Made by a program: the position numbers and the translations under genes. Shown one piece after another: positions 2,598 to 39,700 of a stretch of 42,041 nt of DNA. How positions within the stretch are numbered: the stretch's first letter is position 1; every line of letters starts with the position of its first letter. Location of the stretch: positions 1 to 42,041 of the forward strand of contig CAZRFU010000048.1 of the NCBI GenBank assembly GCA_964599475.1. Reading direction: 5' to 3'. This stretch comes from an uncultured Thermoanaerobaculia bacterium (GTDB lineage Bacteria; Acidobacteriota; Thermoanaerobaculia; Multivoradales; CAZRFU01). The notes beneath the pieces are model-generated. The model saw nothing but the letters and a program-made list of their open reading frames with translations. It searched no databases and was not told the DNA's origin.

Positions 2598-4289
2598 CTA
2601 CGGGACCGTCGCCGACCACGCCGTAGTGTCGCCGGCTTCGAAGCCGTCGGCCAGCACCACCTCGGTCGGGATCGGCGCGAAGGTGCGGAACCGGACCAAC
2701 GGACTGACCGCCACTCCGCCCGCCGCTGCGGGATCGGTGACATACCAGCGGCCGAACCACTCCTTCCCGACAAGGCTCGAGTCCTCTGCGATAGCCACGC
2801 TGATCGATCCGAAACCCGCCCCGGCGCCGACCCCTCCGAGCACGGTGGTCTCGAACACCAACGCCGCCGAGACCGGAGGCAGAAGACCGGGGTCTTGGTC
2901 GTCGACCGCAAGCAGCGCAGAGGCTCCGCCGAGACTGTTCCACACCCCCACCGTAAAGCTCGGGTTGCCGACCAACGCCGGCTCGAGGGCGACCATCCGC
3001 GGCTCGTGTCCGCCGCTGCCGAGGATGCCCGTGCCCTGGACCGAGGGGACCCGTGGCGACTCGGTGTAGAGCCGAGGCCGGTCGAAAGGCGGCTGTTCGG
3101 CGGCGAGGCGTGGGTCGGTCAGCGGACGACCGAGAAACGCGATGAGGTCGGCCTTCTGCTGCGGCGTCAAGCCGAGGGGCGGTCCGAGCTCGTTGGGAGT
3201 GAAGTCGCCGCCGCGATCGTAAAACTCGACCACCTCGGTCAGGTTGATCAGCCGGCCGTTGTGCATGTAGGGCGCCCGCAGTGCGACGTTGCGCAGGCTT
3301 GGTGTGCGCATCTTGCCTTCGTCGGCTGCCAGGCCGGTGACCTCCGACCGGCCGATGTCGTCGGTCCTGGGGCGGACGCCGGTGTAGTGGAAGGCGTGGT
3401 CGCTCATGATCGCGAACTGGTGACAGTTGTCGCAACGCCCGACGCCCGCAAAAATCACCCGCCCGGAAGCCTCCTGAGGCGTCAACCCAGTGTTGGTTGC
3501 CAGGAACTGATCGAAAGGGGTCTGATTGGTGAACTGCGTGCGCTCGTAACTCGCGATCGCCATTGCCGCTCGCGTCGCGCTGATTCCGGGGCTCCCGAAA
3601 GCTTCCTCGAACAGCTCTGGATAGCTGCGCCCGTTGATCCAGATGCGCAACGGCGTCGGAATCGATGGAGCCAGGGCCAGCGGCCGGGCAGTCGCGATGC
3701 GATCGATGGTGGCGAGCCAGTCGCGGCCGACGTGCCCCATCTCGACCTCGTTGACGGGCGGACCGACGGCCTGGCTCTCGAGCGCCGCGCCAAAGGGCAG
3801 CTCGGTGACCATGGTCACCGGATCGACGAAGGCCTCACCCGCCCGCCCATCCCAGAACAACTCCGGGGAATAGCCGGCATTGATGGCTGAGACCGTCCGG
3901 CGCGGTGTCACCTGGGGCAGCAGTCCAAACGCCGTCTGCCAGGAGTAGCTGCCATCGGCGTGGTTCAGGGGCACCCCCGGCGACCCGAAAACATCATCCG
4001 GGCCGCCGAAGACACCGTCGGGTCCGGGATGAACGGCAAGCTGGCTCGCTCCTGAGCGGGGGTCGTCTCCCCCGGCCGCCGGGATATGACACGTGCCGCA
4101 CGACACCGTTCGCGTCGACGACAGCTGCTCGTCCCAGAACAAGACCTTCCCCAACAGCGCCTTGGAAGGGGTGACCGGGTTGCCCGGCGGCTCCGGCGGG
4201 GGAGGCAGCTGCGCGCCGGCGGCCGCCGCAAGCCCTGTCAGCGCCACGATCCAGAGGCGGCCTGCCGTCGTCTTCGAAGCACCTGCCAT
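2598..4289 (-). CDS. Di-heme cytochrome c peroxidase (CCP/MauG family) with ~150-aa C-terminal extension ending in the shared tail ...VVLADGFEAGDTTAWSATVP
   Basis: Two CxxCH haem motifs (CGTCH, CDNCH). Signal peptide MAGASKTTAGRLWIVALTGLAAAAGAQ from the internal ATG at 4289. AAGGA RBS on the minus strand. Convergent with the CRTAC1 gene, with only a 15-bp gap. Confidence 0.85.
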   Translation of the reverse strand: MAGASKTTAGRLWIVALTGLAAAAGAQLPPPPEPPGNPVTPSKALLGKVLFWDEQLSSTRTVSCGTCHIPAAGGDDPRSGASQLAVHPGPDGVFGGPDDVFGSPGVPLNHADGSYSWQTAFGLLPQVTPRRTVSAINAGYSPELFWDGRAGEAFVDPVTMVTELPFGAALESQAVGPPVNEVEMGHVGRDWLATIDRIATARPLALAPSIPTPLRIWINGRSYPELFEEAFGSPGISATRAAMAIASYERTQFTNQTPFDQFLATNTGLTPQEASGRVIFAGVGRCDNCHQFAIMSDHAFHYTGVRPRTDDIGRSEVTGLAADEGKMRTPSLRNVALRAPYMHNGRLINLTEVVEFYDRGGDFTPNELGPPLGLTPQQKADLIAFLGRPLTDPRLAAEQPPFDRPRLYTESPRVPSVQGTGILGSGGHEPRMVALEPALVGNPSFTVGVWNSLGGASALLAVDDQDPGLLPPVSAALVFETTVLGGVGAGAGFGSISVAIAEDSSLVGKEWFGRWYVTDPAAAGGVAVSPLVRFRTFAPIPTEVVLADGFEAGDTTAWSATVP

Positions 4290-4356
4290 GTCGATGGTCC
4301 TTTCTTGGTCACGAACCTCATATGCTACCCTCCGATGCTGCAGGAGCAATAGGGAC

Positions 4357-5751
4357 ATGGAATCGACCCGTCGCCGCCATCATTGCGCGCTGTGCCTGAC
4401 CTCGGCCCTGCTGGTCGCTGCACCGGCGGTGGCTGGCGACTGGATCACCTACGTCGACCAAACCGTCACGCGGCTGGTAGCCGACGCCAGCGTCGGCGTT
4501 TCGGACATCCGCGAGAAGGACTACGCCATCGGTGACCTCGATCGCGACGGCGATCTCGATCTAGTCGTGGTCCGCAAGATCCCGTTTACCAACCCGGGCG
4601 GCTTTCGGAACGTCTTGTTCATGAACGAAAACGGCGTGATGACCGACCGGGCGGCGACCCTGGCACCCGCGTTCCTCGACGCCACCGACGATCGCGACGT
4701 CGAAATCGTCGATGTCGACGCAGACGGGTGGCTCGATGTCATCACCGCCGGCACCTTCGAAGAGCAGCCGCGGATCCTGATGAACCTCGGGCGGGTCGCG
4801 GGCGTGTGGCAGGGCCTCGAGTACCAGCCCAATCGGCTCCCGGTTCTCACCTCACCGACCGGCAACGGTCCGAAATTCTGCGGCCTGGGAGTCGGCGACA
4901 TCACCGGCGATGGTCGCCCGGAGCTCTACTTCACCGACTACCAAAACGACCTCGAGGACCGGCTGCTGATCAACAACGGCGCCGGGTTCTTCTCCGATCA
5001 GACGGCGACACGCCTGACCGAAGCGATGGTCGATTCGACCTTCGGCACCGACGCCGACATCGTCGATGTCAACGGCGACGGTTTCAACGACATCGTCAAG
5101 AACAACGCCACTGGAGGGGGCACCGGGATTCCCGTGGCGCCCTCTCCGGAAGGCTCGATTTCCCCGAGCGTCATGGTGCTCTACAACGACGGCACCGGCC
5201 ACTTCTCGGTCTTCGACGTCGTCAACAACGATGCGCCCTACATGGTGGCCCCGGCCGACTTCAACCGGGACTCGCGCCTCGACCTGTTCGTCGTCGACGA
5301 CGCGCAGGATCGCTACCTGATCAACACCGGCAACAACGTCCAAGGGCGTGCCCAGTTCACGACGGCCCTGGTCAGCACCTCTCCCAACACCAGTTTCTTC
5401 GGCGGCAACACCGAGGTCGCGGACCTCAACGGCGACGGCTTGCTCGACATCCTGGTCGCCGATGTCGACACCGACGCCCCCGGCTGCGGCGGTCGCATGG
5501 TCGCCCTGCGCGGCCAGGGCAGCCCGCCGGCCGTGTCCTTCAGCGATCCCCTGGCCGGCGGCAGTCGCCCGTGGGCGCCACAAGGGACTCACGATGTCAA
5601 GGCCTTTCACATCGACGCCGACGGGCTCCCCGACCTCTTCATTGGCACCTGCTCCGGGACCAAGATCTTCATGAGCGTCAACCCGGACTTCCTCTTCGCG
5701 GACGGCTTGGAAAGCGGCGACACCACCGCCTGGAGCTCGACGGCGCCGTAG
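4357..5751 (+). CDS. FG-GAP/VCBS repeat beta-propeller protein ending in the shared tail ...FLFADGLESGDTTAWSSTAP
   Basis: ATG at 4357 preceded by GGAG. Signal peptide (HHCALCLTSALLVAAPAVAG). At least seven DxDxDGxxD repeats (DLDRDGDLDLVVV, VDVDADGWLDVI, DITGDGRPELYF, VDVNGDGFNDIV, ADLNGDGLLDILV, HIDADGLPDLFIG). Divergent from the peroxidase gene, 67-bp intergenic. Confidence 0.8.
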   Translation: MESTRRRHHCALCLTSALLVAAPAVAGDWITYVDQTVTRLVADASVGVSDIREKDYAIGDLDRDGDLDLVVVRKIPFTNPGGFRNVLFMNENGVMTDRAATLAPAFLDATDDRDVEIVDVDADGWLDVITAGTFEEQPRILMNLGRVAGVWQGLEYQPNRLPVLTSPTGNGPKFCGLGVGDITGDGRPELYFTDYQNDLEDRLLINNGAGFFSDQTATRLTEAMVDSTFGTDADIVDVNGDGFNDIVKNNATGGGTGIPVAPSPEGSISPSVMVLYNDGTGHFSVFDVVNNDAPYMVAPADFNRDSRLDLFVVDDAQDRYLINTGNNVQGRAQFTTALVSTSPNTSFFGGNTEVADLNGDGLLDILVADVDTDAPGCGGRMVALRGQGSPPAVSFSDPLAGGSRPWAPQGTHDVKAFHIDADGLPDLFIGTCSGTKIFMSVNPDFLFADGLESGDTTAWSSTAP

Positions 5752-5840
5752 TGAGGTGCAGGCTCCCACCCGCCCCGCTGGCCCCTTGTTCCCGCTACCC
5801 GATACCCCAAGTAGCCGGTTCGCCACTCGCAAATTGCCCC

Positions 5841-5869
5841 TTGACACATTGCGCGCCCCGTGGCACTAT
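5841..5869 (+). promoter_or_regulatory. Putative sigma70-type promoter: TTGACA (5841-5846), 17-nt spacer, extended -10-like TGgCACTAT
   Basis: Perfect -35 hexamer. The -10 is weak (CACTAT) but preceded by TG. Positioned ~25 nt upstream of the small ORF RBS. Confidence 0.4.
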
Positions 5870-5893
5870 CTCATTCTCTTCGGAGCAACGACT

Positions 5894-6022
5894 ATGAAGA
5901 CCTACCCACTGCATCTCGACCCCTCCAGGAGTGACCGCAACGGTTGCTTCGGTGGCCTGTTGCCCAGCTGCCCAAGCCGGCTGGACGACGCCCAAGATGC
6001 TCGCGGAGAAGGTTTTCCGTAA
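5894..6022 (+). CDS. Small 42-aa ORF (MKTYPLHLDPSRSDRNGCFGGLLPSCPSRLDDAQDARGEGFP) in a compact promoter-RBS-ORF-terminator unit; could instead be a non-coding sRNA
   Basis: GGAG is 8 nt upstream of the ATG. TAA stop. A strong hairpin terminator follows. Three Cys. No recognisable family. Confidence 0.35.
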   Translation: MKTYPLHLDPSRSDRNGCFGGLLPSCPSRLDDAQDARGEGFP

Positions 6023-6049
6023 CACCGCCGACAGCTCGGTGTGACGCTG

Positions 6050-6089
6050 AGGCCTTCCGCGACGGTGTCGCGGAAGGCCTTTTTGCTTG
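6050..6089 (+). terminator. Intrinsic terminator: 14-bp perfect stem AGGCCTTCCGCGAC/GTCGCGGAAGGCCT, short loop, then TTTT
   Basis: Read directly from the sequence. Confidence 0.65.
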
Positions 6090-6313
6090 TGGCCTACGTC
6101 GTAGCCGTGGACGCCGTCCATACAGGATACGTGTATCAATTCTGACCAGAAAGAAGCACCAATAGCGAAAGACTTACAAAGTTCGGCATCGGACCGACGG
6201 CACTTCAGCCACACGAGGCGCGCGCCGAGTGTGTTGCGGTGAGGTGTTCCGGGTACGGGTTCCGAGTGCGGTGTCGAAGCGGGACGCGGCTGGTGGCCGC
6301 CGCACCATGCGGT

Positions 6314-12990: not shown

Positions 12991-13059
12991 ACGAGCGGCG
13001 GAAATTGGCGAGCGATGTCCGTCTCTCTGGCTGTCACCAGCCAGAGGAGGACCCTTTTC

Positions 13060-13431
13060 ATGTTCGGACGTTCGTCGCCTCGCCGCCTCACCCAACGTCG
13101 CCGATCCCACCGCCGGCGGTGGCGGGGACTGCTGCTCGCGGCACTGCTCACGCCGGCACTGGCCCAGGGCACCGATCTCCCTCCCGAGCCTGAGCTCGAG
13201 CCGGAGGGAACCACCGCCAGGCTCACCTTCACCATCGACTCGGGCGGCGGCACGTCGAGCTTCGGGACAACCGAGCTCACCGGCACCGTCGGCCAACCCG
13301 ATATTGGTGTCGCCACTGCCGGATCGATCGCGTTGATCGGCGGCTTCTGGGGCCGCGGCGTCCCCGATCACATCTTCACCGACGGCTTCGAGTCGGGCGA
13401 CTCGAGCGCCTGGTCGGCCACTGTCCCCTGA
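13060..13431 (+). CDS. Small secreted protein (~123 aa) ending in the shared tail ...[19 protein letters not shown]; upstream partner of the collagen-like gene
   Basis: GAGGAGGA RBS before the ATG at 13060. Arg-rich n-region plus hydrophobic signal ([17 protein letters not shown]). Gly/Thr-rich beta-like body. The stop lies 19 nt before the collagen-like gene start. Confidence 0.65.
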
Positions 13432-13450
13432 TCTCGTGGAGGAATCAACC

Positions 13451-15460
13451 ATGTCAGCTCGCCTCGCGTCCAGCCTGATGGCGCTTGCTCTTGCCCTGGT
13501 CACGGGCACCGGCATCGCCCAATCGACCAACTTCACCTACCAGGGCCGCCTGCTGCAAGGCAACACACCGGCCAACGGTCTGTTCGACTTCGAGTTTCGC
13601 GCCTTCGACGATCCTTCGGGCGGCAGCCAGGTGGGATTCGTCTCGACCCATCTGAACGTCGACGTCGACCGCGGGCAGCTGCAGGTCGTGGTCGACTTCG
13701 GCCCCGGGGTGTTTGTCGGTGACCCGCTGTGGATCGAAATTTCGATGCGCCCAGCAGGTGCCGGCCCGTACGACATCCTGAGCCCGCGCCAGCTGGTCAC
13801 GCCCGCACCTCTGGCGATCAACGCCGACACCGTCGACGGCTTGGATTCGACCGAGCTGCAGGGGCAAACCGGCCCAGCCGGCCCCCCCGGGCCGGTCGGC
13901 GCGCCCGGCATCGATGGCCTCGACGGCACCGCGGTGCTGCACGGCGCCGGGGTTCCGAGCGACGGCCTCGGCATCGACGGGGACTTCTTCCTCGATACCA
14001 CCTCCACGAGCCTCTGGGGCCCCAAGGCCGGCGGCACCTGGGTCGGATCCGGGCCGGTTGCCTTGATCGGTCCGACCGGCGCCCAAGGTCCGCCGGGGGC
14101 CACCGGTCCCGCAGGTCCGGCAGGCCCCCAGGGTGACACCGGCGCGACCGGTGCCACCGGTGCGACAGGCGCAACGGGAGCAACGGGTCCGCAGGGCATC
14201 CCCGGTCTCGACGGCCGCACCGTGCACTCCGATGCAGCCTCTCCAGGTGACGGCGTCGGCGCTGACGGCGACTTCTTCATCGACACCACCGGGCCGGCAC
14301 TCTGGGGCCCGAAGGCCTCCGGAACCTGGGCCGGCACCGGTCCGACCTCGATGGTTGGGCCAACCGGCGCGACGGGAGCCCAAGGTCCACAGGGTGATCC
14401 CGGTCCGCAGGGACCGATCGGCGCCACCGGGCCGCAGGGCGCCACCGGGCCACAGGGCGCGGTTGGTCCGCAGGGCCCTGCCGGGCCCCAGGGACTCCAA
14501 GGCGACGCCGGCCCAGCTGGACCGCAAGGTCCTGCGGGACCCCAGGGATCCCAGGGCGACCCCGGCCCAACCGGACCGCAGGGCCCCGCCGGCCCACAAG
14601 GGCTGCAAGGCGACACCGGCCCCGCCGGACCGCAAGGTGATCCCGGGATCCAAGGCCCTGCCGGCGCTACCGGCCCACAAGGTTCCGCCGGCCCCCAGGG
14701 AGACCCCGGCGCGACCGGAGCCCAAGGAGATCCCGGGCCGCCAGGGCCTCCCGGGGCACAAGGGCCGATGGGTCCGCAGGGGCCCCAGGGTGAACAAGGG
14801 ATCCAGGGCGAACCGGGCCCGGCCGGGCCCAGCGGCACCCCGGGTGGTGGCACCAACCGCGTGATCCGATGGAACGTCTTCAGCACCTACGACCAGAATG
14901 CCGGCTGGCTGGCCGCGAACAACGCCGACCTGTTCGGGGGCGTCAACCCGTCGAACTGGACCGACAACAACTACCGCGCCGACCAGATGAGCAGCAACAA
15001 GGACGTTCTACGCGCGCTGCTGACCCGCAAGGGGTACCCCGGCAACGACATGTTGCTGTACGCCGAAACCTGGGGCTACTACTCCTCGACCAACGGCCGG
15101 GTGGTGGTGGCGCTGGTGCGGATTCGCAACACCACCTTGGCGCCGATCGACTGGAACGTACGCTTCCACCACACCTGCTACCAGAACTGGAGCGAGCTTG
15201 CGAGCATCGCCGTCAATGGGGTCTTGCACTGGAGCTCCGCCCCACCGGCACTGAACTGCTCCTCGCAGACGCCGCTCAACACCACCATCTCGATCCCCGC
15301 CAACCGCACCAGCAGCGTGGTCTTCGTCTCGACCTCGAGCATACCGTCGGGCACCACCCGTTCGACCCTGATGGCCTTCTCGAACAACACTTTCCTGCTG
15401 CCGGCCGGGCTCGAGCTGGTCGACGACTTCGAAACCGCCACCGGAGGCTGGGAGCAGTAG
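13451..15460 (+). CDS. Secreted collagen-like triple-helix repeat protein with N-terminal FTYQGRL... domain and a sequon-rich C-terminal globular domain
   Basis: GGAGGA RBS before the ATG at 13451. Signal peptide. Three G-X-Y runs (~200 residues in total). Internal duplicate G(I/A)DGDFF(L/I)DTT...LWGPKA(G/S)GTW(V/A)G(S/T)GP. C-terminus [14 protein letters not shown] loosely resembles the shared tail. The C-terminal domain has many N-x-T/S. Confidence 0.85.
13860..14830 (+). repeat. GGN-rich collagen-encoding tandem repeats, including a perfect (GAT)5-coding run (~14139-14190)
   Basis: Read directly. Explains the long proline-rich antisense ORFs 13454..14797 and 13537..14886. Confidence 0.7.
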
Positions 15461-30171: not shown

Positions 30172-32220
30172 CTAGCGTCGACGCTTGAGGTCCTCGAGGC
30201 GCCGGCGTGCATCCTGCAGCTCGACCCGATCCGGGTCGAGCTGCGTGAGGATCTTGACGGCGACCTCGGCCTGCTGTATCTGCCCGGCCTCGAGGAAGGC
30301 TTCGAGCTGCGCGAGCCCGACTACCACCGACTGGCGTCGGCGGGAAGCCTCTTCGGCGCGGCTGACCTCGGCAAACATCGCCGCCGGCTTGCCGCTCTTG
30401 GGAGCCAGCCTCTCGAGCTCCAGCGCGACCTCGCGCGCGCCGCCGAAATCCTGCGCGCGGACCCGTTCGCGAAAGCGCGTCTCGAAGCTGCGCTCGGCGC
30501 TCTGCGCCGCGACCTGGGATTGAAGCTCGTCGAGCCGACGCCGATACGAGGCGATCGTGACACGGGGCACCGTCGACAACGACTCGAGCGCGGCCAGGGC
30601 CTGTTCGGCTGCCGCCGCATCGCCGCCATCGAGGGCTCGATCCAGCTCCAGACGACGAGCCTCGCCGGTCGTTGCCGCCGCCTCCTGGTGCTCGGCCTCG
30701 CGGATCTCGGCCAGCAGTGCGGCCGACATCTTTCCCGCTGGGTCGTACCTTTCGAGCTCCTGCAGTGCCCTGCGAGCACCGTCGAGGTCACTGCGAGCCA
30801 GTGAGCGACGCCCCTGCGACATCGCGTCTTCCGCACGCTTGGCCTGCTGCGCCTCGTCGCCGAGGAGCTTGACCCAGGCCTCGTAGTCGCCGCGCTTGGG
30901 ATGATTGGGGTAGATCTCCAACAGGGTTTCGAGGGCCAGCGCGGCGAGGGTCTGCTGCTTCTCCAGCAGGTACTTCTCGAGCATCTGCTCGGCTTGACGC
31001 ACCTGCTCGCGGCGCTTGGCGACCTGCTCGTGCTCTGCCAGGCGCGCCTTGAGCTCCGCCAGGCCCTGCATTCGCGGGTTGGCAGCCTCGAGCCGGCGGA
31101 CGTGCTCGCGAGCCTCCTCGAAACGGCCCTCACGCAGCGCGATTTCGGCGTCCGTGTGGACCTTCGAGGTTTCCTTGACACGCCTGGCTGCCTCGTCGAT
31201 CTGGGCCAGCAGCTGGAGGCGCTCGTCCATCGAGAGCTCCGAGCTCTTCTTGGGCGCTTGCTTGACCGACGGCGCAGGACCGGGCGCTGCCGGGGCGGGG
31301 GGCTTGGCAGCGGGGACGGCCGGAGGGGGAGCGGGGATGGCAAAGCCACGCGAGTCGTCGCGGCCCAACGTCTGTCCCACCTCGACCAGGGCCTTGATGT
31401 ATTCGATCGCGTCGTGGAAGCGGTTCTCCCGATCCCGCGCCAGCCCGCGCATCACCACCTGCTCGAGGCCGGCCGGCAGGTTGCCCGGCCCGAGGCGCTC
31501 CGACAGCGGGATCGGATCCTCGCTGAGGCGCTTGAGGACGTACCCGTGTTGGCTCTCGGACTCGAAGGGTGGCAGGCCGCTGAGCATCTCGTAGAGCACG
31601 AGCGAAAAGGAATAGAGGTCCGAGCGAGCGTCGAGAGCCTCACCACGCCGATAACCCGCCTGTTCCGGCGAGCAGTACTGAAGCTTGCCGAGGAATGTCC
31701 CGGCCTGGGTCAGCTCGAGGTTCGACCCGAGGTCCTTGGCCAACCCGAGGTCGATGATCTTGACGATCTCGCGATCCTTGCGGTCCGTCGTCAACATGAG
31801 GTTGTCGGGGCTGATGTCACGGTGAATGACGCCGCCGGAGTGGATCGCATCCAGACCTCGCAGGGCCTGAACTCCGAGCTCGACCGCCAAGGCCGCCGGC
31901 AGCGGTCCGCGGCCGCGGATCCGTGCGCCGATGTCCTCGCCCTCGATGTGCTCCCAGATCATGTAGAAGCGTCCATCGGGGAGCTGCGAGTAGTCGTAGA
32001 GAATGGCGACGTTGGGGTGCTTGATCTGAATGGCGGTGCGCGCCTCCTGATGGAAACGCTGCGCCGCACCTTCGTCCGCTGCGAGATCCGCGCGCAGCAC
32101 CTTCAGCACCCGCAGCTGCTGCAGGTGGAGGTGTCGCACGAGGTACACCTCGCCCATTCCCCCGCTTCCCAGGCGTCGGAGGATCTCGTACTTGCCGTCG
32201 AGAAGGCCGCTCAAGCTCAC
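30172..32220 (-). CDS. Ser/Thr protein kinase (Hanks-type) with Pro/Ala-rich linker and C-terminal helical/TPR-like repeat region
   Basis: All catalytic motifs present: GSGGMGEVY, VLKVL (Lys), HRDISPDN, DLG, SPEQ. No TM helix. Confidence 0.85.
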   Translation of the reverse strand: MSLSGLLDGKYEILRRLGSGGMGEVYLVRHLHLQQLRVLKVLRADLAADEGAAQRFHQEARTAIQIKHPNVAILYDYSQLPDGRFYMIWEHIEGEDIGARIRGRGPLPAALAVELGVQALRGLDAIHSGGVIHRDISPDNLMLTTDRKDREIVKIIDLGLAKDLGSNLELTQAGTFLGKLQYCSPEQAGYRRGEALDARSDLYSFSLVLYEMLSGLPPFESESQHGYVLKRLSEDPIPLSERLGPGNLPAGLEQVVMRGLARDRENRFHDAIEYIKALVEVGQTLGRDDSRGFAIPAPPPAVPAAKPPAPAAPGPAPSVKQAPKKSSELSMDERLQLLAQIDEAARRVKETSKVHTDAEIALREGRFEEAREHVRRLEAANPRMQGLAELKARLAEHEQVAKRREQVRQAEQMLEKYLLEKQQTLAALALETLLEIYPNHPKRGDYEAWVKLLGDEAQQAKRAEDAMSQGRRSLARSDLDGARRALQELERYDPAGKMSAALLAEIREAEHQEAAATTGEARRLELDRALDGGDAAAAEQALAALESLSTVPRVTIASYRRRLDELQSQVAAQSAERSFETRFRERVRAQDFGGAREVALELERLAPKSGKPAAMFAEVSRAEEASRRRQSVVVGLAQLEAFLEAGQIQQAEVAVKILTQLDPDRVELQDARRRLEDLKRRR

Positions 32221-32408
32221 GTCACGCTCACGATCGCCGGTATCTTAGCAGCAGGCCGGAGCCCCTCGGCGGACCGCCGCTCGGCTCTTGCCGCATTCCG
32301 TCGTAACCCTGCCGCGCCGCGGCTAAGCGCAGAGGCTAGAGTCATTTGCATCCCTCACCCCGCTTGCGCTCGCGGCCGGCCTCTGGCATCCTCGGAGCAG
32401 GAGGCCGT

Positions 32409-34310
32409 ATGAGCGACGAACGACTCGGATCCTGGGTGGTTCTCCGCAGACTCGCCGATGATCTGCTGGGGCCGACCTGGCGACTGGCGCGAGCCGACCT
32501 CCAAGGCGGTGTCGAGCGCTTGGCTTTGGGCCGCGCCTTCATCGGTGCCGGGTTGGCGGCCGAGGGTCGCAACCTCGCGGCAGTCGTCGATCATCCGTTC
32601 GTCGCGACCACCGCCGATCTCTTCGATCATCAGGGCCAATGTATCGTCGCGTGGGACTACACCTCCGGGCATTCGCTGCGGGAGATCCTCGAGCGGGCGA
32701 GCGATCGCATGATGCCCCTCAACCCCGGCTTGTGCCTGCTGATCGCGGAGCGGGTGGCGCAGGGATTAGCCGCCGCCTCGCAGCGCCAGCTCGATGGCAA
32801 GGCACTCCACCACGGCCTGCTGCGGCCGGAGCTGGTGTGGGTCACCAACGATGGCGAGGTCAAGATACTCGGCTTCGAGATCGGCAGAGCCTTGGCGGCT
32901 CGGCTCGCGGGCTCTCCTGCCTTCGGCCCCTTCCTCGCACCCGAAGTGCGCGCCGGCAGCCCGGTCGAGGCGCGCGACGACGTCTACTCGCTGGCTGCGG
33001 TGCTCCATGCGGCGCTCACCGGCATCGATCCGCCGAGCCATGATGCGGACCGCGCGGCCGAAGACGCCACCAGTGCCGAGGACGGGGCGCCTTTGCCTGC
33101 CGAGTTGACCAGGCTGCTCGCCTCGTGTCTCGGTCCTCGCAGTGGCCGGCCGGCCAACCCCGGCGCGCTGCACGACGCACTGCGCGAAATTTCCCTGACC
33201 GCCGCACGAAGGGTCGGTCCGTTCGAGCTGGCGTACGCCATTCACGGGCTGTTCGGCGACGAAATCACCACCGAGGCCCGAGAGCTAGAACGGGGAGGGC
33301 GTCCGGAGCCGGTGGGTGGACCGGCATCGCCGCGAGCGGCATCGGTTCCCGCTGGTCCGCAGCCGCTTCCGACCCAGCCGGTGGTGGTGGCGAGCTTCGC
33401 CGACGAGCTCCGTGCGGAACCGGCGAAACCTCGACGGGCTCCGTGGCTGCCGATCGCCGCAGGCATTGCTGTCGTGGCGGTGGGTGTCGGCCTGGTGCTG
33501 TCACGAGACCAGGGAGGCTCGCCGCCCGCTGCCACTCCCGCAGCCCAACCGGCACCTGTCGCATCGCCGACGGTGCCGGCCGGCCCATCGCCGGAGGAGT
33601 TGCAGGCGCAGATCCGCGCTCTGGTGGAACAACGGACGGGAGCCGTTGCCGCCGAGATGCGGGATCAACAGGAGGCGGAGATCAAGGCGCTCCAGGAGCA
33701 ACTGGCTGCGGCCCAGGCGGCGACAGTGGCGGTGCCGGAGCCCGCCCCCAGGCCTACACCTCCCGTGCCCACACCCGTTCCGGTCACGAGCCCGCACGCG
33801 GGCACCAGCCAGCCCCCGGCATCGCCGGCGACGGCTGCGCCGCCCGAACCGTCCGCGAACGCACAAGCAGCTCCCGCAACTCCTGCGGCAGCGAGCACCG
33901 TCGCCTCGAGCCCCGCGGCAGCCGCACCGCCGCCGCAGGCGGCACCGCGCGTGGAACCGGCCGCCCCGCCGCGCGCAGCCACCTCCACACCACCCGCTAC
34001 ACCATCTGCTACCGCCATCGCCACGCCGGGCCCGGGCGTCACCCCGCCCACGATGTTGACCTTCGCCAAACCGGAGTACCCCCTGCTGGCCCGTCGCACC
34101 AAGGTGCAGGGTACCGTCATCCTCTCGATCCTCGTCGACGAACAGGGTCGTGCGACGGACATCAAGTTCCTCAAGCGGGTCGAGCAGGATGTCGGACTGA
34201 ACGAGGCGGCCGAAAAGGCTGCCCGCGCGTCGACCTGGCGCCCCGCCTCCAAGGACGGCAAGCCGGTCAAGATGTGGTTTACCCTCCCGGTCCCCTTTGC
34301 GCTTGAGTAG
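32409..34310 (+). CDS. Kinase-like pseudokinase domain fused via a TM helix and Pro/Ala-rich linker to a TonB C-terminal domain
   Basis: AGGAGG RBS. Kinase-fold remnants without catalytic residues: no Gly-loop, HHGLLRPELVWV in place of HRDxxxxN, LGFEIG in place of DFG, and APEV kept. TM helix LPIAAGIAVVAVGVGLVL. C-terminal TonB_C (…PEYPLLARRTKVQGTVILSILVDEQGRATDIKFLK…). Divergent from the Ser/Thr kinase gene, 188-bp gap. Confidence 0.75.
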   Translation: MSDERLGSWVVLRRLADDLLGPTWRLARADLQGGVERLALGRAFIGAGLAAEGRNLAAVVDHPFVATTADLFDHQGQCIVAWDYTSGHSLREILERASDRMMPLNPGLCLLIAERVAQGLAAASQRQLDGKALHHGLLRPELVWVTNDGEVKILGFEIGRALAARLAGSPAFGPFLAPEVRAGSPVEARDDVYSLAAVLHAALTGIDPPSHDADRAAEDATSAEDGAPLPAELTRLLASCLGPRSGRPANPGALHDALREISLTAARRVGPFELAYAIHGLFGDEITTEARELERGGRPEPVGGPASPRAASVPAGPQPLPTQPVVVASFADELRAEPAKPRRAPWLPIAAGIAVVAVGVGLVLSRDQGGSPPAATPAAQPAPVASPTVPAGPSPEELQAQIRALVEQRTGAVAAEMRDQQEAEIKALQEQLAAAQAATVAVPEPAPRPTPPVPTPVPVTSPHAGTSQPPASPATAAPPEPSANAQAAPATPAAASTVASSPAAAAPPPQAAPRVEPAAPPRAATSTPPATPSATAIATPGPGVTPPTMLTFAKPEYPLLARRTKVQGTVILSILVDEQGRATDIKFLKRVEQDVGLNEAAEKAARASTWRPASKDGKPVKMWFTLPVPFALE

Positions 34311-37453: not shown

Positions 37454-39700
37454 TCAGGTGTGAGGATCGCGCATGGACCGGGCGGGCGCGGCGTCGAGCA
37501 ACTCGACCGGGGCGCCCGACCACGCCACGATGCGGCCGATCCGCTCGGCACCCCCGGGAAGTTGCTGCAGCTGCTCGAGGAGCCGAGGAGCACTCGCGGG
37601 CGGTACGACGATCAGCAGGCCGCCCGCAGTCTGCGGATCGGCGGCGAGTGCCGCGCGCGCAAGCTCGTCTGTCGGCGGCGCCAACGCGGCGCCTTCGAGC
37701 ACGGCCCTGTTCTGGGCGTGGAAGCTGCTGCGTTCGCCGGTCTCGAGCAGCTCCAACGCCCCGGGCAGGGCCGGAAGGGTGGCGAGCTCGATCTCGGCGG
37801 TAACCCGCGGCTCCCGAGGCAACACGGTGACGAGGTGCCCCACCAGCCCGAACCCGGTCACGTCCGTGCACACCCGGAGCTCGGACTTGCTGAGAACGGC
37901 GGCGGCGGACGCGTTGCCGGTTTCGAGGTGCCGGTACAGAGCTTCGACCCAGCGTCCCTCCGCTCGCCCTGCCATGTCGGCGTGGAGCAACACCCCCGAG
38001 CCCAGCGCGCGAGTGAGCAGGATGACGTCCCCGATCTGGACCGCGCCGCGCAGCAGGCGGCCGGGTAGCTCCGGCTGACCATCGATCGAAAATCCAACCA
38101 GAAGCTCGGCTGCTCGGGCGGTGTGACCGCCGAGCAGCGGGACGCCGCGGCCTTCGAGCACACTGCGGGCGCCGAGGAGGATCTGCCGCAGCATCCACAC
38201 CGCCTCGGCCTCGGGCAGGTCCAGCGGTAGTGCAACGATCGCCTGGGCGGCCCGTGGAGTCACTGCCTTGGCATCGAGATCCGACAGGGTGTTGATGGCG
38301 GCCACTCGACCGAAGAGGTACGGATCGTTGGTGAAGGCACGCAGGAGCTCGAGGTTCGAGACCACCACCTCCGAGCCCAGGGTCCGCCACGCGACGACAT
38401 CGTCGGCGGCCTCGATCCCGAGGACGACCTGATCGGGCCGCGGACTCCCCGCGAGGTCTCCCAACGCCTGCTGCAGTGCCGACGGCCCGAGCTTGGCGGC
38501 ACACCCGCCGCACACCATTACCGCCGCCGGGTCCGTGGTCGACATCGGAGCGAGTCTGAAGCGTTCGACGAAACGCCGGTCGATGTGGTCCTTCCAGTGC
38601 ATCACCCAGCGGCCTGCGACGATCACGCCGTTGCGCTCGCCGAGAGCCTCGCCGTCGCCGAGATTGAGGAGCGCGAGGAAGTGCCGTTGCGGTCGCCATC
38701 GCCGGAGAGGGCGCCCTGCGAGCCGGGCCTCGAGGTTTTCGAGCAGCAGCGGCCCCGCGCGCACAGCGTACACGCCGGCCCGCAGAACCCACGGAAAGGT
38801 GGGGAAGGCGGCGCAGTCACCGACCGCAAAAAGCCCGGGGACGCCCTTGACTTCGAGGGTTTCCTCGACTTCGAGGAAACCTGCGGAGTCGAGGGCCAGT
38901 CCAGCGGTCTCGAAGTCCCGGTGCGCCGCGGCACCGGCAGCCCAGACTACGAGGTCGGCCGGCCGAAATCCACCACCCGCGAGGGCCACGCCCGCGGGTT
39001 CCACAGCGTTCACCGTCACACCACACTCCACTGCGATCCCACGATCCTCGAGCTCCAGCCGTGCCCGCTCGGCCAGCTTCGTCGAGCGCTCCGACAGGAG
39101 CCTCGGGCCCGCCGCCAGCAGCTGCACCCGCGACTCATGTCCGCGGTGGCGGGCGCGAGCCCCAAAGGTGGCGGCGAGCTCGACTCCCGCCGCGCCGCCA
39201 CCAACCACCACCAGATCGACGCCGTTGCGGCGCTCGCGGCAGAGCTCGTCGAACCGCTCGATGGCGCTCAGCAGGCGCCCGAGAGGCCGGGTCAGCACCG
39301 CACGCTCGACCACTCCGGCCGCGCCCCCGTCGGCCCCGGTCGAGCCGATGTCGAGGGAGGCCACGTCGAACTCGAGAGGAGGTCGATCGGCGATCAGGAT
39401 CGTCCGGGCCTCCGGGTCGACGCCCTTGGCGCGGGCCAGGATGATCCGGACGCCCGCGCGCCGGGCCAGCTTCACGGCATCGATCTCGAGGTCTTGCTGT
39501 GTGTAGCGTCCCTCGATCAGGCCGGGGACCATTCCCGAGTAGAGCGCCACCGCCGCGTCGACGACCAGCGTGACATCGAGGTCGGGGCGAGGACGCATGG
39601 CCCAGGCCCGCAGCACCTGCACGTGGGCGTGGCCGGCCCCGACCAGCACCACTCGGGGCCGGGCGCCTCTTGCTCCGATCGAAGTCATTGCTCGAGCCAC
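37454..39700 (-). CDS. selD: Bifunctional fusion: N-terminal FAD/NAD(P)-dependent pyridine nucleotide-disulfide oxidoreductase (NDH-2-like) and C-terminal selenide, water dikinase SelD (Cys-type)
   Basis: N-terminal VVLVGAGHAHV and VVVGGGAAGVELA Rossmann motifs. The C-terminal half aligns with E. coli SelD: VCGGCAAK~GCGCK, DPYLFGRVAAINTLSDL~NPFDFGRIAATNAISDI, VTDVTGFGLVGHL, DPQTAGGLLIVV. Cys, not Sec, at the active-site position. Confidence 0.8.
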   Translation of the reverse strand: MARAMTSIGARGARPRVVLVGAGHAHVQVLRAWAMRPRPDLDVTLVVDAAVALYSGMVPGLIEGRYTQQDLEIDAVKLARRAGVRIILARAKGVDPEARTILIADRPPLEFDVASLDIGSTGADGGAAGVVERAVLTRPLGRLLSAIERFDELCRERRNGVDLVVVGGGAAGVELAATFGARARHRGHESRVQLLAAGPRLLSERSTKLAERARLELEDRGIAVECGVTVNAVEPAGVALAGGGFRPADLVVWAAGAAAHRDFETAGLALDSAGFLEVEETLEVKGVPGLFAVGDCAAFPTFPWVLRAGVYAVRAGPLLLENLEARLAGRPLRRWRPQRHFLALLNLGDGEALGERNGVIVAGRWVMHWKDHIDRRFVERFRLAPMSTTDPAAVMVCGGCAAKLGPSALQQALGDLAGSPRPDQVVLGIEAADDVVAWRTLGSEVVVSNLELLRAFTNDPYLFGRVAAINTLSDLDAKAVTPRAAQAIVALPLDLPEAEAVWMLRQILLGARSVLEGRGVPLLGGHTARAAELLVGFSIDGQPELPGRLLRGAVQIGDVILLTRALGSGVLLHADMAGRAEGRWVEALYRHLETGNASAAAVLSKSELRVCTDVTGFGLVGHLVTVLPREPRVTAEIELATLPALPGALELLETGERSSFHAQNRAVLEGAALAPPTDELARAALAADPQTAGGLLIVVPPASAPRLLEQLQQLPGGAERIGRIVAWSGAPVELLDAAPARSMRDPHT

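Follow-up and report, generated by a model that had tools for sequence, protein, structure and literature searches.

A short, acidic C-terminal tag without a transmembrane segment on exported proteins of Thermoanaerobaculia, a candidate sorting or docking signal

We analysed a 42,041-nucleotide stretch of DNA (hereafter the window; GenBank assembly GCA_964599475.1, contig CAZRFU010000048.1, positions 1 to 42,041, G+C content ~68-70%) from an uncultured member of the Thermoanaerobaculia, a class of Acidobacteriota that is abundant in sediments, soils and wastewater and has hardly any cultured members. Three unrelated proteins encoded in the window, all with signal-peptide-like N-termini, end in the same short peptide. 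Sequence comparisons indicate that this peptide belongs to a large, previously undescribed family of short C-terminal tags that is specific, or almost so, to this class. We lean, by a modest measure, towards the tag being a Thermoanaerobaculia-specific sorting or docking signal that lacks a transmembrane (TM) helix and would be read in trans by a partner.

The motif DG(F/L)E(S/A)G was identified three times, and no more, in a six-frame regular expression search of the whole window. This agrees with a preliminary description of the same DNA, made from the sequence alone, which had reported three unrelated open reading frames (ORFs) with a common C-terminal tail. In all three, the Asp of DG(F/L)E is 16 residues ahead of the stop, and the shared ending is (I/L)F-x-DGFE-S-GD-(T/S)(T/S)-AWS-x-x-V-P-stop.

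The first protein is a MauG/MbnH-like di-haem cytochrome c peroxidase of 563 amino acids (aa), encoded on the minus strand at 2598..4289 (Pfam CCP_MauG, 4.6e-34; NCBIfam MbnH/MauG). Its C-terminal tag, VVLADGFEAGDTTAWSATVP, is at 2601..2660 on the same strand, with the DGFE..VP core at 2601-2648 and the stop codon at 2598-2600. The protein consists of a signal peptide, a catalytic domain, a ~120-aa C-terminal beta-sandwich, a variable 8-residue linker and the tag; the CCP_MauG/cytochrome c part ends near residue 410-425 of the 586-aa ORF. The beta-sandwich and tail make up the non-catalytic C-terminal extension that had been noted earlier. The top Foldseek match of the peroxidase model is 6e1c, a MauG-like protein, which confirms the MauG/MbnH/CcpA fold.

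The second protein, divergently encoded, is separated from the peroxidase by 67 bp (4290..4356, from start codon to start codon, both of which were checked). It is a 464-aa FG-GAP repeat protein (4357..5751, plus strand; Pfam FG-GAP_3, 6e-27) with the signal peptide MESTRRRHHCALCLTSALLVAAPAVAGD... and the C-terminal end ...FLFADGLESGDTTAWSSTAP*. Its tag, DFLFADGLESGDTTAWSSTAP, is at 5689..5748 on the plus strand (core 5701-5748). In other assemblies with the identical peroxidase (L121 and L122; 4540-5157, minus strand), the adjoining FG-GAP gene is called at 205 aa rather than 464 aa; this may be a true truncation or may stem from differences in gene calling or assembly.

The third protein is small (123 aa; 13060..13431, plus strand), with an Arg-rich signal peptide, a core that includes LTGTVGQPD...GGFWG, and the tag at 13369..13428 on the plus strand (core 13381-13428). 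No Pfam or NCBIfam family was matched by this protein. The start at 13060 is the one used in other assemblies, and no record was found for the exact product of the longer ORF at 13015-13431. A gene for a collagen-like protein of 674 aa with its own signal peptide (13436-15460, plus strand; Pfam Collagen, 1.7e-36) starts 4 nt past the stop of the small protein, and given this spacing the two genes are probably co-transcribed. The C-terminus of the collagen-like protein loosely resembles a degenerate fourth tag. It obtains no score with the profile described below, and was not counted.

A hidden Markov model (HMM) built from 88 independent tails scores the peroxidase, FG-GAP and small protein tails at 40.6, 32.5 and 44.6 bits, respectively, compared to 6 bits for the best non-tagged ORF in the window. 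Given this separation, and given that the tail is kept across orthologues, we rejected a chance match or a gene-calling artefact. The 48-nt cores of the three genes have 31-37 nt in common, and each pair differs at 4-5 synonymous and 3-5 non-synonymous codons, with AGC/TCG exchanges at serines among these differences. The 100-nt flanks on both sides of the cores show 26-40% ungapped identity, approximately the level of unrelated sequence at that base composition. Thus, it is the protein motif that is conserved rather than the DNA, and a recent DNA duplication, which had already been argued against in the preliminary description, can be rejected.

The tag extends well beyond these three genes. 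A first database search with a 45-aa tail alignment returned 12 word-index candidates and 11 metagenomic proteins, all of which end in ...GFESGD(T/S)(T/S)AWSATVP or are at most three residues from that; the family size was taken instead from an HMM search. For this search, a profile of the tails of these proteins was compared by full HMMER with 1.84 billion representative proteins, and 3351 protein clusters reached E<=1e-3. In the 150 best-scoring proteins, the distance to the C-terminus is exactly 16 residues for 110 of ~200 motif instances. We also scanned genomes, one per species, with a degenerate DNA pattern for D-G-(F/L)-E-x-G-D-x-x-A-W-S, and identified at least 119 loci. A family of only three members, the outcome that the preliminary description had named as fatal to its proposal, is clearly not the case. 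Among the genomic matches listed, the spacing to the stop is exactly 16 residues for 89 of 131 motif instances and 11-24 residues for most of the remainder. Metagenome-assembled genomes (MAGs) labelled Thermoanaerobaculia, Multivoradales, Sulfomarinibacteraceae, 'Holophagae' or Acidobacteriota account for 104 C-terminal and 7 internal instances among these matches, and all other taxa for 9 C-terminal and 10 internal instances. The restriction to Thermoanaerobaculia goes beyond what the preliminary description had proposed.

Some single MAGs contain at least seven loci, and the window has three copies in 42 kb. Tagged genes lie dispersed among housekeeping genes, in some cases as tandem paralogues. 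For example, L001 (contig_3257 of MAG MFD00032.bin.2.196, ~3000-6200, minus strand) encodes four consecutive ORFs that each terminate in the tag; two of these were scanned, and both are LVIVD-repeat proteins. Tandem arrays of tagged genes were also identified at L051, L088, L101 and L027.

The family consensus is (I/L)-F-x-D-G-F-E-S-G-D-T-S-A-W-S-x-x-V-P-COOH, with a length of 17-20 residues. Tails end in Pro, or else in Q, N or D, and the length after AWS ranges from 0 to ~9 residues in real family members. The acidic, TM-less character described for the three original tails holds for the family: no TM-like stretch was seen within the final 45 residues of any of 74 complete tag carriers, and their final 20 residues have an average net charge of -3.3 (range -5 to -1). 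Their mismatch with described domains also holds. No Pfam-A or NCBIfam model covers the tails, whether these are scanned alone or within the 74 full proteins, and literature searches with motif strings, or for Thermoanaerobaculia or Acidobacteriota together with C-terminal sorting, returned nothing relevant. There is no tag match among solved structures, as a sequence search of the PDB gave only chance matches to HasA (E ~0.7).

The peroxidase provides the clearest view of how the tag is retained. An identical copy is present in four public assemblies and is identical to P0158, and the named orthologues are mostly from Thermoanaerobaculia or Acidobacteriota MAGs. Of the 120 listed orthologues, which have 56-100% identity, 119 retain the tail itself or a closely related form (e.g., DNFETGDTSRWSSTVQ or DDFESGDFSEWTQAVP). 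In an alignment of 72 peroxidase sequences, we took for each column the share of its most frequent residue; this averages 0.66 over the tail, 0.69-0.73 over the catalytic and beta-sandwich domains, and 0.25 over the 8-residue linker. Each of F546, D548, F550, E551, G553 and W558 is present in 62-70 of these 72 sequences. By this measure the tail is about as conserved as the folded domains, and is real and under selection. The tag is also kept in the small-protein homologues P0278-P0282, at 41-99% identity.

The sole exception among the peroxidase orthologues, P0277 (59% identity), aligns up to residue 539, just ahead of the tail, and continues with ~100 residues that match TIGR04183 Por_Secre_tail (27 bits, versus a cutoff of 23). 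Por_Secre_tail is the type A C-terminal domain (CTD) of the type 9 secretion system (T9SS), and in P0277 it sits exactly at the tag junction. A distant homologue of the small protein, P0283, retains the 'TIDGGGG...LSGTVGQPDAG...GGFW' core, for which there is no Pfam or NCBIfam family, and has the segment GDLDGDNAIGLADLAQLL...DLDGDGDVDLADLAALL in place of the tag. This segment was judged dockerin-like by eye only, without a profile search. These two homologues suggest that the tag may be interchangeable with known sorting modules, namely a T9SS domain in P0277 and, by eye, a dockerin-like segment in P0283.

The AlphaFold2 (AF2) model of the peroxidase, based on a 72-sequence alignment, has a mean predicted local distance difference test (pLDDT) score of 86. 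The score is mostly >90 in the catalytic domain and the C-terminal beta-sandwich (residues ~416-537), whereas the tail (residues 540-563) is predicted as coil with a pLDDT of 53-60. The model of the small protein, based on 6 sequences, reached a pLDDT of only 44. The combination of a peptide that is conserved like a fold and yet is not placed on the fold is suggestive of a linear motif bound in trans.

Alternatively, the tail could act in cis, as a small and possibly Ca2+-binding hairpin with a Pro end that caps the protein, stabilising the C-terminus or blocking carboxypeptidases with no role in sorting. The three acidic residues of DGFE-x-GD, the terminal Pro in 51 of 72 peroxidase orthologues, the extracellular enzymes among the hosts and the failure to find a partner (see below) would all suit such a cap. 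However, AF2 does not pack the tail on its host, and F, F and W are conserved as strongly as residues of a folded core, which is hard to explain if they are exposed to solvent. Nor would a generic stabiliser be expected to be restricted to one class, or to be replaced by a T9SS sorting domain at the same position in a homologue. We therefore regard a cap as distinctly unlikely.

The cargo of the tag is diverse. The 74 complete tagged ORFs carry 58 Pfam families, including FG-GAP, BNR, subtilase S8, beta-helix, InhA-type MAM, LVIVD, M36, C25, M28, cadherin-like and GH8 domains. NCBIfam matches include choice-of-anchor B, J, O and Q proteins, rhombotarget A, and myxosortase-dependent and rhombosortase-dependent M36 peptidases. 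All of these NCBIfam families are defined by C-terminal sorting signals that differ across lineages. Signal-peptide-like N-termini were identified, using a crude heuristic, in 58 of the 74 tagged ORFs and in 48 of 110 neighbouring ORFs. Judged by these domain matches, the cargo is the typical repertoire of a sorting signal, consisting of secreted or surface-type proteins. Together with the T9SS domain in place of the tail in a homologue, the presence of choice-of-anchor families in this repertoire supports the earlier suggestion that the tail is a candidate sorting tag.

A different possibility is that the tail is a signal for C-terminal processing or quality control, recognised by a periplasmic PDZ-type protease as a propeptide, maturation signal or degron. 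The tail is flexible in the AF2 model, and the strong preference for a near-C-terminal position (the 16-residue spacing in 89 of 131 instances among the matches listed) could be read in this way. However, the 0 to ~9 residues that follow AWS imply that an exact C-terminal register is not needed, the cargo resembles that of surface and secreted sorting systems rather than a set of proteins with regulated turnover, and no S41 or PDZ genes were found near the tagged genes in the neighbour scan. On these grounds we consider a processing signal rather unlikely.

Among the closest known systems are the tripartite C-terminal sorting signals, which include LPXTG, PEP-CTERM, MYXO-CTERM, GlyGly-CTERM and IPTL-CTERM (Haft, bioRxiv 10.1101/2023.06.07.544157). 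Like these, the tag is at the extreme C-terminus, occurs in many copies per genome, has near-invariant residues, is found with signal peptides and is restricted to a lineage, and its cargo overlaps their choice-of-anchor families. Of the seven criteria listed by Haft, five are seen in the tag: position, multiplicity, an invariant signature, signal peptides and unrelated cargo. For the signature, at least three nearly invariant residues are called for, and the tag has F, D, F, E, G and W at the frequencies given above. The other two, a TM helix and a basic cluster, are those that define the tripartite architecture. Whereas tripartite signals have a hydrophobic TM helix and an Arg/Lys cluster, neither was identified in any of the 74 carriers, and intramembrane cleavage of the sortase type cannot apply.

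Tripartite signals similar to IPTL-CTERM (e.g., ...DIPTLSSRSLVVQAIVLAIATLAVLVRRRK) were identified at the ends of untagged ORFs in the Thermoanaerobaculia loci L083, L092, L102, L119 and L078; none were found in the window. These signals indicate that a classical TM-type sorting system is present in the lineage as well. As the same genomes carry such signals on other proteins, the tag appears to be a parallel system and not a replacement for a missing one. One ORF on the minus strand of L082 (L082_-1_540) does not stop at the tag but continues into a hydrophobic segment and a basic cluster (...GDGFETGDTSAWSTVIP-ALFGDGPLVNGMLLVLMVAGAAVMRLKER*), and here both kinds of signal seem to be combined.

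Similarity to other C-terminal systems is limited. Like the tag, the T9SS type A CTD (TIGR04183) is a TM-less C-terminal module on Sec-exported cargo, but it is a folded beta-sandwich of ~70-100 aa and the ~17-20-aa tag has no sequence similarity to it; the tails do not match the NCBIfam Por_Secre_tail model. Dockerins are also small terminal modules that attach a protein non-covalently to a partner, and may serve as a working analogy only, as the tag has no Pfam Dockerin_1 match and no Ca2+-binding repeats. Donor-strand complementation in chaperone-usher pilins is likewise a possible working analogy and nothing closer; neither a cohesin-like receptor nor a strand-deficient one was identified. 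Substrates of type 1 secretion are without a Sec signal peptide and have a signal of ~50-60 aa, often after RTX repeats. The three window proteins have signal peptides and no RTX matches. The beta-signal of outer-membrane proteins is a terminal aromatic residue that closes a beta-barrel, and does not correspond to tails that end in Pro (or Q, N or D) on hosts that are soluble enzymes or propellers.

The likely origin of the tag emerged from motif instances in other phyla, a connection that was not part of the preliminary description. In Chloroflexota, Actinomycetota and one Bathyarchaeota MAG, the motif is ~185-235 residues before the stop, and in many metagenomic proteins it is repeated every ~190-440 residues. 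In other phyla it maps to positions 1-40 of Pfam Polysacc_lyase (PF14099, ConA-like) or positions 3-46 of CBM_4_9 (PF02018), and (I/L)FxDGFESGDxSAW(S/T) is common to these jelly-roll domains and the tag. An HMM of 212 positions, built from 37 internal domains, aligns to >100 tails, those of the three window proteins among them, and in every case only its positions 1-17 are involved. Thus, the tag is presumably an N-terminal jelly-roll strand or hairpin that has become detached. A complete jelly-roll domain has ~130-210 aa, whereas the tagged proteins stop without the remaining ~190 residues, and the tag cannot be assigned to these families as a domain. In some proteins, short tandem copies of the motif occur between Pro/Thr-rich linkers, which points to a capacity to function on its own.

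This kinship raises two further explanations. The tails could be functionless remnants of C-terminal ConA-like or CBM4_9-type jelly-rolls that were truncated just past the first strand, as the alignment to positions 1-17 would allow, and proteins of Chloroflexota and Actinomycetota often end with the full domain. The conservation data make this most improbable: 119 of 120 orthologues, with identities as low as 56%, retain the tail, whereas the adjoining linker varies. Moreover, the same end point occurs on dozens of unrelated host domains, and independent truncations would not all end in ...xxVP. The tails could also bind a cell-surface glycan, extracellular polymeric substances or a metal directly, tethering proteins to the matrix with no protein partner involved. 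Descent from a fold like that of carbohydrate-binding modules, the aromatic and acidic residues, and tandem copies with Pro/Thr linkers like those of binding modules are in keeping with this idea. However, seventeen residues are far below the size of the binding site of a carbohydrate-binding module, and direct binding of this kind is, in our view, very unlikely.

Returning to a sorting or docking tag that is read in trans, we propose the following. Tagged proteins would be exported by the Sec pathway via their N-terminal signal peptides. The acidic, TM-less tag is predicted to hang from the last folded domain on a variable linker, unpacked on its own protein. A putative lineage-specific partner would then read the tag in trans, and either pass the protein across the outer membrane or dock it at the cell surface or matrix. 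The tag may thereby have the role that T9SS CTDs, PEP-CTERM, MYXO-CTERM and GlyGly-CTERM signals or dockerins have in other phyla. The tag corresponds to residues 1 to ~17 of a jelly-roll domain without the remainder. The most economical mechanism, although speculative, would be recognition by beta-strand augmentation, in which the tag completes a sheet of the partner. A bolder version is that this is a categorically new sorting or docking system of diderm bacteria, in which a detached jelly-roll strand on dozens of exoproteins per genome is captured by a dedicated envelope receptor or translocon via strand complementation, in parallel with IPTL-CTERM-type signals. We see this version as possible, and on present evidence unlikely.

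Several points weigh against a specific sorting or docking tag. The distribution across taxa comes from a sample (at least 119 loci), and the taxon labels are as given by the MAG submitters. Internal copies of the motif that form the start of a domain, and short tandem copies between linkers, occur in other proteins, and the motif is therefore not restricted to the role of a terminal signal. Low AF2 confidence in the tail region carries little evidential weight. Among the window ORFs, we identified no sortase, exosortase or rhombosortase, the three whose absence had been noted before, and also no CPBP-type protein, other protease or outer-membrane candidate. No co-distributed partner was found, and no family is enriched among the 110 immediate neighbours of tagged genes, where a Pfam scan identified no family with more than three members. 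A jelly-roll without its first strand, the putative receptor, was not found in the window or in ~0.9 Mb of Thermoanaerobaculia loci, which is a small sample.

All-versus-all clustering of ORFs from 120 loci recovered only Ser/Thr kinases and sulfatases as recurrent groups, both of which are large families in these genomes. Kinases of this type adjoin tagged genes more often than any other family (19 loci), which probably reflects the very large size of the kinase family there. Two Ser/Thr protein kinases are encoded in the window (32346-34310, plus strand, and 30172-32220, minus strand), one of them fused to a TonB_C domain. Other genes of the window have housekeeping and regulatory functions: purine synthesis, CysK, TspO, an SDR protein, OsmC, an SPFH protein, these kinases and an E1 dehydrogenase. 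At 37454-39700 (minus strand), a pyridine nucleotide-disulphide oxidoreductase domain (Pyr_redox_2) is fused to an AIRS/AIRS_C module, which may be SelD/ThiL-like.

The tag provides an HMM-searchable marker for the exoproteome of Thermoanaerobaculia, including proteases, propeller proteins and adhesin-like proteins. It also offers a handle on the missing machinery, via phylogenetic profiling or peptide pull-down. All sortase-like systems of which we are aware require a membrane-spanning segment, and the tag tests whether C-terminal sorting works without one. Finally, it is a possible case of a domain fragment that has been re-used as a signal.

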